Assembly: GCA_050185705.1 (NCBI GenBank)
Contig: JBFWZD010000014.1
Location: forward strand, 32,147 to 96,146
Direction of reading: 5' to 3'
DNA: 64,000 bases
Source: Nitrospira sp.
GTDB taxonomy: Bacteria; Nitrospirota; Nitrospiria; Nitrospirales; Nitrospiraceae
Of this stretch, positions 15,848-19,937 are shown piece after piece. How positions within the stretch are numbered: position 1 is the stretch's first letter; every line of letters starts with the position of its first letter. The notes beneath the pieces are model-generated. The model was not told where the DNA came from and ran no database searches. It saw only the letters and a list, made by a program, of their open reading frames with translations. Made by a program: the position numbers and the translations under genes.

Positions 15848-17566
15848 CTACGCACCGATGAGACTAAGCGTCGTCTTGAGAACCGGCGAGGTCTTTGGCT
15901 CCATAAAGAGCGAGTGGAAGGTACGGTGGACCATCGTCGTATGTCGCTGATGATCGGCACGGAAGGACTCGACGGCTCTTTTACGATCCTGTGCGTTATA
16001 TCCCATCCGAACGGCGCACCGCTCCAATTCGTCTTCTTCCTCGGGAAGTGAATGGGTCTGCAGATCATGGACCATCTGAAGTTTATGCTCGACATCGCGC
16101 AAGAACACATACGCCACCGTGAGATCCTCCTGCTCTTGAGCTGAGATGAGCTTCCACCGGGCAAAACGTTCCAAGGCGCCGAGCGTGCTTCGGTCCACGA
16201 CCGCCGGCAGTTGCTTCCCTGCCAAGACTTGAAGGGTCTGCGCAAAGAACTCAATTTCCCTGATTCCGCCAGTTCCCAGCTTCACGTTGCGGTGTTCGTG
16301 GCCTCGGCCGGCCATTTTCCCGTCGATCATGTCCTTGACGGCCCGCACCTCCTCCACTACAACCGATGCCTCGGCGAGGTCCAATGGCTGCTTGGCGCTC
16401 CCAAATATGAATGGCCTCACGGCCTTCACAAAGGCCTTCCCCAGCTCCACGGACCCGGCAACGGGTGCGGCTTTGAGCAAGGCCAATCGCTCCCAGACTT
16501 GGCCGCGCGCAAGATAGTAGCGCTGATAGCTGGTCAGCGACCGTGCCAATTGCCCTACAGACCCCTCGGCACGTAGTCGCAAGTCAACCCGAAACACGTA
16601 TCCCTCTCGAGTCGGCTCGGTCAAGGCTCTGGTCAATTCTCGGGAGAGAATCTCGAAATATTCTTCGTTTGAAATGCCGACACCGGCCGGGGTTTCAGCA
16701 TTCTTACGCCCTTGAACTCTCGTTTCCCCGTCATCGGACTCATAGATGTAGAGGAGGTCCACATCTGAGCTGTAGTTAAGCTCGTGCCCACCCAATTTTC
16801 CCATTCCGATCACGGTGAACCCAGTTTCTACCCACCGTCTCCGCCGATTCTGGTGCATCGGCACGCCATATAGCCGCTTCAGATCCTCATCGACGATCTG
16901 GTAGGCGGCATGAATCAGCAAGCTAGCCAAGTCGGACAATGCGCCGGTCGTCTCCGACACCGGGGCAAGCCTGAGCAGATCCCGGACGCCGATGCGTAGC
17001 ATCTCGCGTCGTCGAAACCGACGAAGGGCATCCAACTTCACTTCCTTTGAGGTGAGATGTCCCAAACTCTTGCGAAGCCGATCCTCCATCCCCTTCCGCG
17101 TCGGTCGTTTGGACAGTACCTGCTCCTCGGCCAACCAATAGACCAATGTCGGGTCTCTAAGGAGAGTAAAGGTCAAGGCATCGCTGTTACCGAAAATGAC
17201 ACAGAGCAGATCGAGCATGCGTGGCCAGGTACGCAAGTAATCCAGAAAGGAGCTGCGAGATACCGTCCCCAACATCCGCTCCCAATGGTTCAACGCCTGA
17301 TCGGGGTCAGCGGTCTTGGAAAGCGACTCCATCAACATCGGCAGGATGTCCGCGAGCCGCCGACGTTGGAGCGGGTCACCTGCCATGGCATTCAGATTCC
17401 GATCTGCCTGGTCGAGATCTCGCAAGCCATACGCCGCTAAGATGACCCGTATTTCCCCAGGATTTCTCCGCTCAGCCAGTAAGATGGGTCGAGGATCCGG
17501 CCGTATCGGCGCGAACCCTCCGGTCGATAATCGTGATCTGTCGACTGCCTTAGACTTTCGTTTCAC
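15848..17566 (-). CDS. glnE: GlnE half-protein 1 (single nucleotidyltransferase domain resembling the N-terminal, adenylyl-removing domain)
   Basis: GMGKLGGHELNYSSDVDL, FRVDLRLRAEG, WERLALLKA, NVKLGTGGIREIEF; 572 aa, only one NT domain. Confidence 0.88.
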   Translation of the reverse strand: MKRKSKAVDRSRLSTGGFAPIRPDPRPILLAERRNPGEIRVILAAYGLRDLDQADRNLNAMAGDPLQRRRLADILPMLMESLSKTADPDQALNHWERMLGTVSRSSFLDYLRTWPRMLDLLCVIFGNSDALTFTLLRDPTLVYWLAEEQVLSKRPTRKGMEDRLRKSLGHLTSKEVKLDALRRFRRREMLRIGVRDLLRLAPVSETTGALSDLASLLIHAAYQIVDEDLKRLYGVPMHQNRRRRWVETGFTVIGMGKLGGHELNYSSDVDLLYIYESDDGETRVQGRKNAETPAGVGISNEEYFEILSRELTRALTEPTREGYVFRVDLRLRAEGSVGQLARSLTSYQRYYLARGQVWERLALLKAAPVAGSVELGKAFVKAVRPFIFGSAKQPLDLAEASVVVEEVRAVKDMIDGKMAGRGHEHRNVKLGTGGIREIEFFAQTLQVLAGKQLPAVVDRSTLGALERFARWKLISAQEQEDLTVAYVFLRDVEHKLQMVHDLQTHSLPEEEDELERCAVRMGYNAQDRKRAVESFRADHQRHTTMVHRTFHSLFMEPKTSPVLKTTLSLIGA

Positions 17567-17580
17567 GCTTCACGTCTCAC
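17560..17580. repeat. 7-bp tandem repeat (nnYTCAC) at the start of glnE half 1
   Basis: gtttcac gcttcac gtctcac. Confidence 0.6.
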
Positions 17581-17601
17581 ACAATCTGTGTATGGCGCGG
17601 C

Positions 17602-17650
17602 ATTATACTGGCAGCTTTCTCTACGCACAACGAACCGGTTCGGGTATACT
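17602..17650. promoter_or_regulatory. Divergent promoters of the two glnE halves
   Basis: Minus strand TTGTGC-N17-TATAAT (17630-17602); plus strand TATACT (17645-17650) 7 nt before ATG 17658. Confidence 0.6.
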
Positions 17651-17657
17651 GACTCCC

Positions 17658-19937
17658 ATGTCGATCGCCTCTCCTGATCATACCTCACTGCTCGCCCGCG
17701 TGCGTGCGCTGTGCCCGACCATTGAAGAGGATATCCTCCAAGACTTTTTTAGCCGTATGGATCCAGAATATTTCCAGCGATTCGAACCAACGGCCATCGC
17801 CGCGCACGTCCGGTTGGCCGCACAGCTGAATGCGGACCACCCCTGTACGATTGTCTTTTCCGAACCGCAGGATAAGCGGTTTGAGATCACGATCGTGGCC
17901 TACGATTACTTCGCGGAGTTTGCGACCATCTGCGGCCTGTTGTCGGCTTTTGCCTTGAACATTGAGGAAGGCGATATCTACACATTCGCCGAACAGGTTG
18001 CATCCCCACCTACCCGCACTAGTTGGACAGGATATGGACCGCGGGTCCGTTCGAAGGGAACTCCCGGTTTGAGCAAGAAAAAGATCGTCGATGTGTTTCG
18101 TGTGTCGCCGGTGCCGGGCGAAGCGTGGGGATCGGAGCAACAAGCTCAGTTGGAATCCGAACTCCAGTCGGTTATCGCGTTGCTCGATAAAGGGTACTTC
18201 GAAGAGGCACGGTTTGCGGTCAACCGACATCTGGTCGAACAGCTTGGGAAACATCGCGCGTCCTTCAGCGGTCTGCTCCTTCCCGTACAGATCACGTTCG
18301 ACAACAGCCAGTCCGCTATGGACACGGTCATGGATATCCGATCGGACGATACACCGGCTTTTTTGTATGCCTTCGCCAATGCCCTGGCGATGCGCAACAT
18401 CTATATTTCCAAAGCCCAGTTTGACGTGGAGCACGGAAAAATTCATGACCGCTTTTATGTCCGCAATCGCCACGGCCAGAAACTCTCCGACGCCGCCGAT
18501 CAGGAGCAGCTTCGCCTGACCGCCGTACTCATCAAGCAGTTTACCCATGCCCTCACCTGGGCCCCGGACCCGACCAAAGCGTTGGAAGCCTTCGATCAGT
18601 TCCTCGACTTAACGATGCAACAAACGAAAGGTAAAGCCCAACAAGAAGCCCTCGCATTTCTTAGCGATAAAAAAACCTTTCCGCTCTTGGCCCGTCTACT
18701 CGGCGCCAGCGATTTTCTCTGGGAAGACTTTCTCCGTCGCCAACACAGCAATCTGTTGCCTCTCCTACAAGACTACCGAGAAGCGCCTCTCATGAGACCA
18801 CGGGCTACACTGCGCAAAGAACTTGATCGCCAAGTGGATCGGGCAAAGAACGACGACGCGCGGAAGGCAGCGATGAACGGGTTCAAGGACCGGGAACTCT
18901 TTCGCATCGATATGAAACACATCGTCGAGCCTGGCACCGCCTTGCCTGACTTCTCTGCCGCCTTGACGCAACTCGCCGAAGTCATCGTCGATCGAAGCTT
19001 GAAGGACTGCCAGGCGAAGCTGAACAAGCTGTACGGTCCCCCAGGACTGGCGAACAAGAAACCCTGTCCGTTCACCGTTCTGGGATTAGGCAAGTTCGGC
19101 GGCAAGGAACTCGGCTATGCCTCTGACATTGAAGTGCTGTTTGTCTACAGCGACGCAGGTCGCACCAGTGGCAAAAATCCGATCGAGAACAGCGAATACT
19201 TTGAGCGGCTCGGCGCGGAACTCTTACAGTGGATCGAGGCCAAACAAGAGGGCATCTTCCACCTTGACGTGCGATTGCGACCCCATGGTGAAAAGGGCTC
19301 TCTTACCAACCCTTTCGACGAAATAGCCAAATACTACAGTGACCGGGGCCTGGCTGCCCCGTTTGAGCGTCAATCCTTGATCAAACTCCGACACGTGGCC
19401 GGCGATGCGACGCTCGGCAAGAAGGTCGAAGCCCACCGTGATAGCTACGTCTACAGCGGCAAACCCTGGGACCTGCGCATCGCGCTCGATCTGCGCCGCC
19501 AACAGCTGAAAGAGCTGGTCGAGCGTGGCACGGTCAATTTAAAACATAGCCCTGGCGGTATCGTCGATATCGAATATGCCGTCCAATATCTCCAGATCAT
19601 GCATGGTCATCGGCTCCCTATCTTACGCACAACGAATACCATGCAGGCTCTATCGTCCCTCGTCGATGCAGGGCTGGTGACGAGGCAAGTAGGCGAGGAT
19701 CTGCGAAAGGCCTATTTGTTTATCCGCATGCTCATCGATGGCCTTCGCATGGTCCGTGGGAACGCCAAAGATCGCGTGCTCCCATCGGCCCACTCCGATG
19801 AATTTATCTTCCTGGCTCGCCGCGTAGGCTACACGACGGATGATTGGCAAGCCGGAGCGAAACACCTCACCTCAGATATTGAAGAGCACATGGGAAAGGT
19901 CAAGAATTTTTTTGGGAGAACGTTTGGGAAGGTCTAA
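17658..19937 (+). CDS. glnE: GlnE half-protein 2: two GlnD-type ACT domains plus a nucleotidyltransferase domain resembling the C-terminal adenylyltransferase
   Basis: ITIVAYDYFAEFATICGLL and VQITFDNSQSAMDTVMDIRSDDTPAFL...DRFYV (ACT1/ACT2); GLGKFGGKELGYASDIE, DVRLRPHG, LKHSPGGIVDIEY. The ORF-track start at 17316 overlaps the opposite gene and was not used. Confidence 0.85.
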   Translation: MSIASPDHTSLLARVRALCPTIEEDILQDFFSRMDPEYFQRFEPTAIAAHVRLAAQLNADHPCTIVFSEPQDKRFEITIVAYDYFAEFATICGLLSAFALNIEEGDIYTFAEQVASPPTRTSWTGYGPRVRSKGTPGLSKKKIVDVFRVSPVPGEAWGSEQQAQLESELQSVIALLDKGYFEEARFAVNRHLVEQLGKHRASFSGLLLPVQITFDNSQSAMDTVMDIRSDDTPAFLYAFANALAMRNIYISKAQFDVEHGKIHDRFYVRNRHGQKLSDAADQEQLRLTAVLIKQFTHALTWAPDPTKALEAFDQFLDLTMQQTKGKAQQEALAFLSDKKTFPLLARLLGASDFLWEDFLRRQHSNLLPLLQDYREAPLMRPRATLRKELDRQVDRAKNDDARKAAMNGFKDRELFRIDMKHIVEPGTALPDFSAALTQLAEVIVDRSLKDCQAKLNKLYGPPGLANKKPCPFTVLGLGKFGGKELGYASDIEVLFVYSDAGRTSGKNPIENSEYFERLGAELLQWIEAKQEGIFHLDVRLRPHGEKGSLTNPFDEIAKYYSDRGLAAPFERQSLIKLRHVAGDATLGKKVEAHRDSYVYSGKPWDLRIALDLRRQQLKELVERGTVNLKHSPGGIVDIEYAVQYLQIMHGHRLPILRTTNTMQALSSLVDAGLVTRQVGEDLRKAYLFIRMLIDGLRMVRGNAKDRVLPSAHSDEFIFLARRVGYTTDDWQAGAKHLTSDIEEHMGKVKNFFGRTFGKV

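Follow-up and report, generated by a model that had tools for sequence, protein, structure and literature searches.

The window analysed here is a 64,000-nt stretch of a Nitrospira sp. genome (GenBank assembly GCA_050185705.1, contig JBFWZD010000014.1, positions 32,147 to 96,146 of the forward strand), and positions below are those of the window unless a contig is named. Within it lie two divergently transcribed genes, here called M and P, separated by 91 bp, each with a single GlnE nucleotidyltransferase domain and a single helical PF08335 domain (Table 1). In the textbook cascade, GlnD senses glutamine, the PII protein relays the signal, and GlnE executes the adenylylation of glutamine synthetase (GS). 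Canonical GlnE (E. coli b3053, 946 aa) is one chain of an adenylyl-removing (AR) half and an adenylyltransferase (AT) half, represented by the structures 1V4A and 3K7D. Each half consists of PF03710 plus PF08335, as in M and in P, which differ from it in being two genes. All four matches to these domains in M and P far exceed the gathering scores. The genome (99.96% complete) contains only these two GlnE domains, and no two-domain GlnE, i.e. an AR-then-AT tandem chain of ~950 aa, was found anywhere in it.

Table 1 Coordinates of the two genes, their domains and motifs, and the elements of the spacer between them
Feature	Position	Strand	Details and support
Gene M	15848..17566	-	Single-module GlnE, AR-type half, 572 aa, GTG start; ORF list, Pfam, trees
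M helical domain PF08335 (GlnD_UR_UTase)	15905..16306	-	Residues 421-554; E 2.9e-29, 102.3 bits
M nucleotidyltransferase domain PF03710	16427..17206	-	Residues 121-380; E 6.6e-62, 209.6 bits
M third carboxylate	16568-16585	-	In DLRLRA
M motif GMGKLGGHELNYSSDVD	16757-16807	-	G-S...D-x-D; residues 254-270
Intergenic spacer	17567..17657	.	91 bp, conserved non-coding boxes; alignment
Predicted M -10 box	17602..17607	-	ATTATA on plus, perfect TATAAT on minus; invariant in 23 spacers
Conserved block TACGCACAACGAA	17622..17634	.	Between the -10 boxes, holding both predicted -35 regions; alignment
Predicted P -35	17622-17627	+	TACGCA, 17-bp spacer
Candidate M -35	17625-17630	-	TTGTGC, 17-bp spacer to -10
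Predicted P -10-like box	17645..17650	+	TATACT, 7 nt before P ATG; alignment
Gene P	17658..19937	+	GlnD-type sensor module plus single-module GlnE, AT-type half, 759 aa; ORF list, Pfam, NCBIfam, homologues, trees
P sensor module	17715..18488	+	Residues 20-277: helical linker, ACT1, ACT2; TIGR01693, hhalign, AlphaFold2
ACT1	17844-18188	+	With ~28-residue disordered insert; AlphaFold2
Predicted ligand loop DYFAEF	17904-17921	+	Residues 83-88
ACT2	18288-18515	+	
Predicted ligand loop DTPAFL	18348-18365	+	Residues 231-236
P nucleotidyltransferase domain PF03710	18687..19430	+	141.7 bits
P motif GLGKFGGKELGYASDIE	19083-19133	+	Residues 476-492, D490-x-E492
P third carboxylate	19266-19283	+	In DVRLRP
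P helical domain PF08335	19530..19919	+	E 4.6e-18, 66 bits

The G-S...D-x-D/E...D-RLRP signature is common to canonical GlnE and the two proteins, and the G-S element and the D-x-D/E and D-RLR(P/A) carboxylates are complete in both M and P. P carries D-x-E in place of the canonical D-x-D. Among 105 family modules its S-D-x-E reaches a conservation of at least 90%, and in both family alignments it is invariant, so D-x-E is a hallmark of the family and not a local mutation. G478, K479, G481, G482, S489, D490, E492, D537, R541 and P542 are all invariant in a 20-sequence alignment of the P family (34–46% identity). Neither protein reaches the cut-offs of the NCBIfam equivalogs NF010706, NF008292 and NF010707 (724, 487 and 625), with scores of 372.9, 339.6 and 310 bits for M and 230.5, 195.7 and 193.8 bits for P. 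An earlier, sequence-only reading of this DNA had assigned one nucleotidyltransferase domain to each gene, which the PF03710 matches confirm, and had given the spacer its correct length of 91 bp (17567–17657). The motifs that it quoted for M and P (including the D-x-E of P, DYFAEF and DTPAFL) are all present, and the translation of b3053 does contain the two E. coli motifs that it gave, ELNFSSDID and ELGYSSDLD.

The frame of P, read from stop to stop, opens at 17316. Its start was taken as the ATG at 17658, and the resulting length of 759 aa is shared by most listed P homologues. The in-frame ATG at 17592, which gives 781–783 aa in some gene calls, was rejected as the start because indels upstream of 17658 among relatives are not multiples of three and the conserved blocks there show no variation at any codon position.

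Affiliation of the two halves and the sensor module of P

The affiliation of M and P with the two halves of GlnE was examined in a careful IQ-TREE analysis (LG+C20 PMSF) of 44 half-proteins, comprising M and P with their orthologues from 11 Nitrospirales genomes, together with the N- and C-terminal halves of E. coli GlnE and of nine fused GlnE proteins from Nitrospirota. M and the fused N-terminal halves, including that of E. coli, were separated from P and the fused C-terminal halves with a support of 99/98. The same split, again at 99/98 and in 100% of bootstrap trees, came from an enlarged set of 72 rows, to which 20 fused ACT-type proteins of other phyla contributed both their M-like and their P-like portions. 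Since an unrooted tree leaves open whether P branched before the AR/AT duplication, 11 GlnD proteins, cut to their nucleotidyltransferase and PF08335 domains, served as an outgroup in a quick tree. Here, the canonical C-terminal halves and P formed a clade (SH-aLRT 96), the root given by GlnD lay on the side of the AR halves, and no attraction was seen between the long branches of GlnD and P.

On this phylogeny M falls among the AR halves and P among the AT halves, and the proposed division of GlnE into an AR-type and an AT-type gene is borne out. The AR-type assignment of M is secure, and M also scores higher against the E. coli AR domain (181.8 bits to 1V4A) than against the AT domain (144.7 bits to 3K7D). 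P is AT-type by its position in the trees, with the caveat of a long stem that is weighed below. The sequence-only reading had reached the same assignment for P from its ELGY motif. The assignment stands on phylogeny; the motif does not serve as its basis, as canonical Nitrospirota AT halves carry ELS, ELT or ELI at this position, and ELGY was rejected as an AT marker for lack of it in these halves. ELN[FY]SSD was a consistent marker of the AR/M side among the rows with a readable motif.

P differs from characterised GlnE proteins by an additional N-terminal module of ~275 residues. NCBIfam GlnD models match only the first ~290 residues of P (TIGR01693 positions 605–845, E 5.8e-22, 77.8 bits against a cut-off of 519.4), and in a profile built from 20 family members P 19–275 is collinear with E. 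coli GlnD 653–869 (hhalign 96.5%, E 7.7e-10). The matched part of GlnD (E. coli b0167) is its glutamine-sensing C-terminal region of ~220 residues, made of linker helices, ACT1 and ACT2. An AlphaFold2 model of P (35-sequence alignment, mean pLDDT 78) has a bundle of four helices at its N-terminus and two folds of the ACT type, and DSSP assigns the beta-alpha-beta-beta-alpha order twice, with DYFAEF and DTPAFL located in the two beta1-alpha1 loops. In Pfam terms, ACT2 matches PF24931 (an ACR9-like ACT family) with 27.0 bits, exactly at the cut-off, and PF01842 ACT is listed as a weak match on fused homologues in precomputed annotations. A Foldseek search with the model returned 1V4A and 3K7D as the best PDB matches, with ACT-containing proteins lower. 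These results uphold the claim that the AT-type gene bears GlnD-type ACT sensors.

GlnD and P also have PF08335 in common, and they differ in three respects: P has no HD domain in a Pfam scan, its nucleotidyltransferase domain is of the GlnE type, and its sensor is N-terminal rather than C-terminal. By analogy with GlnD, glutamine would be the ligand of the ACT pair in P, and its binding would be signalled to the catalytic domain.

Distribution of the pair and of its partners

Conservation of the pair was assessed on the best 80 matches of the family alignment to genome contigs, all from Nitrospirales, a set that speaks to pair conservation and not to taxonomic breadth. The divergent M/P arrangement is kept in 64 of the 66 loci with enough flank, and it was found in all 11 sampled genomes from two Nitrospirales families, so that it is neither a chance feature nor an assembly artefact. 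M and P are the sole GlnE in Nitrospirales genomes, besides weak cross-matches to GlnD, and other Nitrospirota families carry an ordinary fused GlnE of ~1040 aa. Across the Nitrospiria sample, M and P were either both present (32 genomes) or both absent (G098 and G102). Some streamlined Nitrospira have been reported to lack glnE (PMC9239080).

When 1.84 billion representative proteins were scanned in full with HMMER, P proved to belong to a much larger family. We tallied the best 149 clusters at 50% identity besides P's own, and at least 148 of these belong to an ACT-bearing GlnE (ACT-GlnE) subfamily: ~70 are ACT-P-M fusions in permuted order (~1250 aa), ~40 are M-ACT-P fusions (~1220 aa), and ~31 are stand-alone ACT-P proteins. 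Taxonomy could be read from the minority of clusters with source names, and the named members come from Anaerolineae of the Chloroflexota (M-ACT-P), a Spirochaetota cluster (ACT-P-M), Abditibacteriales (stand-alone) and Nitrospirota. In a tree of 105 modules the stand-alone and M-ACT-P forms are intermixed, indicating that fusion and fission have recurred. The fused proteins (M-ACT-P, ~1160–1290 aa; ACT-P-M, ~1250 aa) share the three modules, the S-D-x-E motif and the sensor with the Nitrospira pair, and at 31–47% identity to full-length P they are its true family; they differ in being one chain, and are likewise uncharacterised. Their annotations read only 'ACT domain-containing protein', 'glutamine synthetase adenylyltransferase' or 'hypothetical protein', and no publication on a GlnE that is split or bears ACT domains was found in literature searches. 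The split itself is therefore real, as had been proposed, but it is neither special to Nitrospira nor the main novelty, since its ACT-plus-AT module belongs to a large family in which it occurs alone or fused in either order.

The class Anaerolineae offers a second view of this architecture. GlnE was found in 15 of 61 genomes, and in all 14 with both GlnE domains found these lie in one frame of 1160–1290 aa with a GlnD-like ACT module between them. One Anaerolineae genome (G151) was checked for a further GlnE besides the fused form, and none was found. Two other proteins, P0258 and P0259 (~950 aa), apparently consist of a P-type half followed by an M-type half, with no ACT module in the chain. 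They appear to be circularly permuted GlnE proteins, with the AT-like half first and the AR-like half second. Separately, a fourth and weak PF03710 match (26–44 bits) occurs in one genus, g6 (G078:C1:1225690-1226283, G110:C1:2191051-2191647 and G147:C1:1675676-1676200), in an ORF of ~807–839 aa that is neither M, P nor GlnD and may be another nucleotidyltransferase of the superfamily.

Canonical GlnD is absent from the Nitrospira genome studied here. The best TIGR01693 match is the ACT part of P itself, and P was likewise the only match of E. coli GlnD against all ORFs of at least 80 aa and of a Nitrospiraceae GlnD by tblastn against the genome. A relative (G055) has the order glnB-glnD-glnA, and in our genome (C19:20062-21877, minus strand) and its congener G027 glnB is followed directly by glnA; glnD is cleanly lost from this cluster in the lineage. 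With glnD lost, PII can no longer be uridylylated by the classical route, although the GlnB of this genome keeps its T-loop tyrosine (KETYRGQEY). GlnD is absent from 11 of the 32 pair-bearing Nitrospiria genomes, ten of them in this genus (10 of 14 sampled species), and from all 25 Anaerolineae genomes checked, which carry the ACT module inside their GlnE.

By type the GS of this genome is a GS-I beta, in which both the insertion and the KDLYDLD loop are present, and M and P are the only GlnE-family set in the same genome, a further likeness to canonical systems. Its glnA lies on a different contig from the pair. In deeper Nitrospirales families glnA adjoins M and P, convergent with P in family f2 (genomes G078, G110 and G141; loci L023, L024 and L026) and just upstream of M in family f4 (G114:C75). 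In most Nitrospiraceae genomes glnB-glnD-glnA lies 9–20 kb from the pair. We infer from these four lines together (the pair as the sole GlnE in genomes with a GS-I beta, the closeness of M to genuine AR halves, the adjacency of glnA, and the nearby glnB-glnD-glnA cluster) that GS would be the target. The loop tyrosine of GS was considered as a tracer of GlnE presence and dropped, as it is conserved regardless.

Two further observations concern genes of these kinds elsewhere in the genome. A second, divergent GS-like gene is found at C1:288221-289660 (minus strand; 242 bits to PF00120). Besides glnB, there are four small PII-like ORFs, at C7:140601-140966, C7:149316-149627, C9:103245-103811 (TAG-interrupted) and C17:19869-20195.

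The shared spacer and a proposed glutamine-responsive switch

The spacer was compared in an alignment of 23 spacers, and its boxes were counted over 73 loci. No reading frame is preserved among relatives, and the spacer is therefore non-coding. An invariant block, GCATTATACT, includes the minus-strand TATAAT (17607 to 17602), and box 1 (ATTATACT) occurs in 59 of the 73 loci. A second conserved block reads ACGCACAA(T/C)GAA, and the block GGTATACT includes the TATACT at 17645–17650, with box 2 (G[GC]TATAC) present in 62 of 73 loci. TATACT most commonly lies 7 nt from the ATG of P (26 of the 55 loci with both boxes; 6–11 nt in 46 of 55), and the ATG of M lies 8 nt 3' of the minus-strand TATAAT in 17 of 22 close relatives. 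With −10 boxes only 7–8 nt from the start codons, the M and P mRNAs are predicted to be leaderless or nearly so. In our genome and a few relatives the ancestral M ATG is lost. Our genome shows CAT changed to TAT on the plus strand (17592–17594), and its M starts at the GTG at 17566, which would give it a leader of ~28 nt.

The two −10 boxes are ~39 bp apart, and with 17-bp spacers the two −35 hexamers are adjacent and overlap by 3 bp. This geometry suggests coupled rather than independent control. A sigma-70 consensus scan of the spacer returned no promoter, as no more than 3 of the 6 positions agree in the −35 hexamers, and this counts against the assignment of the boxes as promoters. Inspection by eye found no sigma-54 (GG-N10-GC) or NtcA (GTA-N8-TAC) site at conserved spacer positions. 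The claim of separate promoters thus receives no support from the consensus scan and some from the two conserved −10-like boxes, which we treat as putative promoter elements. That the two genes encode separately regulated enzymes, as had also been claimed, is unproven: the −10 boxes stand back to back with adjoining, overlapping −35 regions, and the fusions of M and P modules in other phyla argue for joint working.

Taken together, we favour with moderate confidence a model in which M and P form a two-gene GS adenylylation switch, with an AT half that carries its own GlnD-type glutamine sensor and belongs to a widespread, uncharacterised ACT-GlnE subfamily. High glutamine would bind the ACT pair of P and switch P on, whereupon P would inactivate GS-I by AMPylating the tyrosine of its ...KDLYDLD... 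loop. As nitrogen falls, M would reverse this modification and reactivate GS. Both genes would be transcribed from the back-to-back promoters, and the two proteins probably act as one complex, given that other phyla have both modules within a single fused chain, with either one first. In a genome without GlnD, the ACT module of P would be the sole remaining GlnD-type sensor, and the pair is probably the primary nitrogen-status sensor for the control of GS. The analysis firmly establishes the architecture, homology, AR/AT affiliation, conservation, fusions, distribution and lack of GlnD, whereas GS as target, glutamine as ligand, the complex and the function of the promoters are inferred.

The known biochemistry of separated GlnE halves bears on this model. 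Among the E. coli ATase constructs AT-N and AT-C of Jaggi et al. in 1997, the separated N-terminal half reportedly keeps AR activity. The separated C-terminal half of Herbaspirillum seropedicae GlnE (delta-NT) retains glutamine-dependent AT activity (bioRxiv 10.64898/2026.09.02.748916). A natural split is thus biochemically feasible, as engineered halves keep their activity. Unlike M and P, these engineered halves are laboratory truncations without an ACT module, in which the PII-dependent cross-talk between the halves is lost.

Several observations weigh against the model. The pairwise scores of P do not favour an AT identity: P scores 125.7 bits to the E. coli AR domain as compared to 107.8 bits to the AT domain, and it scores about equally to both halves of fused Nitrospirota GlnE. 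Used as a classifier, the scores against the E. coli halves would make both proteins AR-like, and they were overridden by phylogeny. The P clade also has a long stem (1.07–1.68 substitutions per site), such that the AT identity of P rests on tree topology and on its complementarity with M. The second metal carboxylate of P is Glu, where all characterised GlnE halves have Asp. Across 35 Nitrospirota genomes, the tyrosine of the GS loop is kept also where GlnE is lacking, including families with neither GlnE nor GlnD, and GS-I alpha-like enzymes that lack the insertion have it too. No glnA, glnB or amtB was found near three homologues outside Nitrospirales. No M gene occurs within 8 kb of the stand-alone ACT-P homologue P0213, and divergent pairing is therefore not kept by every split form. 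This protein (737 aa) is encoded on a 2.5-Mb ENA contig (L166) beside transposases and a reverse transcriptase of the group-II-intron type. Finally, the ACT-GlnE subfamily is known from sequence alone, and canonical GlnD is kept in 21 of the 32 pair-bearing Nitrospiria genomes. The module is accordingly not simply a replacement for GlnD, and since ACT-GlnE occurs both with and without GlnD, a bypass is no consequence of the split. The earlier suggestion that PII and GlnD may be bypassed is plausible for this GlnD-less genome, as a bypass of GlnD is for Anaerolineae, and fails as a property of the split.

These points leave room for other explanations, among which the independence of the two proteins seems unlikely. 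M and P would then never associate, and control would come mainly from differential transcription from the two promoters. The separate divergent genes with a conserved −10 box each fit this arrangement, as do the isolated P0213, the location of M and P on different contigs in G114, and the activity of single engineered halves. However, the modules are fused in ~110 of the best 149 clusters and in both orders, and recurrent fusion and fission are typical of interacting subunits. The co-presence or co-absence of M and P in the Nitrospiria sample points the same way, and the spacing of the −10 boxes and the 3-bp overlap of the −35 regions suggest coupled control. In the main rival, which we consider distinctly improbable, P, alone or with M, would instead be a GlnD analogue that nucleotidylylates PII (Tyr51 of GlnB) rather than GS, restoring PII modification in genomes that have lost GlnD. 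P coexists with a full GlnD in the majority of the Nitrospiria genomes, where a second PII modifier would be redundant; its catalytic part is of the GlnE family, on the AT side of the tree and apart from the GlnD nucleotidyltransferase; it lacks HD; it is constantly partnered by an AR-type half of GlnE; and without P as the AT enzyme these genomes would hold AR but no AT activity. We disfavour this explanation for its conflict with the coexistence, the catalytic domain and the partner, while noting what speaks for it: the homology of the sensor module to that of GlnD, the NCBI name of one orthologue ('[protein-PII] uridylyltransferase family protein'), the retained T-loop tyrosine of GlnB in a genome without GlnD, and the high divergence of the P clade from characterised AT halves.

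The Glu in place of the Asp of all characterised halves, along with the long stem branch, might be taken to mean that P is a pseudo-enzyme, a non-catalytic sensor subunit that regulates M, or GS by binding, with no adenylylation cycle. The Pol-beta nucleotidyltransferase superfamily tolerates D or E at that position, and the catalytic residues of P are invariant across the 20-sequence alignment, suggesting a conserved and not a decayed site. An AR-type partner would also be left substrate-less without an AT enzyme, and we regard a non-catalytic P as very unlikely. Least probable of all, and in our view very improbable, is that the pair AMPylates and de-AMPylates a protein other than GS and PII. 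The divergence of P and the neighbourhoods without glnA, glnB or amtB outside Nitrospirales would be compatible with such a target, but glnA adjoins the pair in families f2 and f4, M is closely related to genuine AR halves (372.9 bits to NF010706), and no other GlnE is found in these genomes, whose GS-I beta has the adenylylation loop.

With the GS switch as the preferred model, a bolder version can be formulated, which we hold as speculative and rather doubtful. A self-contained, glutamine-sensing GS switch would replace the GlnD to PII-UMP to GlnE cascade by a single sensor-enzyme in GlnD-less bacteria (the present Nitrospira lineage and every sampled Anaerolineae genome) and, in Nitrospirales, would be joined by a transcriptional toggling of the two activities. 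The toggling would arise from the abutting −35 regions and leaderless mRNAs, where occupancy of one promoter could hinder the other. The GlnD sensor module is here joined directly to the adenylyltransferase half, in a large and unstudied subfamily that is the only form of GlnE in Nitrospirales and in the sampled Anaerolineae genomes. If the model holds, a major group of nitrifiers (nitrite oxidisers and comammox bacteria) would control the assimilation of ammonium through a circuit that is shorter than, and unlike, that of model organisms. The natural split would also offer ready-made separate AR and AT enzymes, with which the long-standing question of how GlnE keeps its two activities apart could be addressed directly.

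A minor observation concerns the 3' flank of M. At 14405–14680 (minus strand), ~1.2 kb past the true 3' end of M and beyond toxin-antitoxin debris, the final 92 codons of M recur as a diverged pseudogene with 46% amino acid identity and an in-frame stop. With up to 74% identity to relatives, the present tail of M is native, whereas the copy reaches at most 58% to any relative, which is consistent with the insertion of an element at the 3' end of M.

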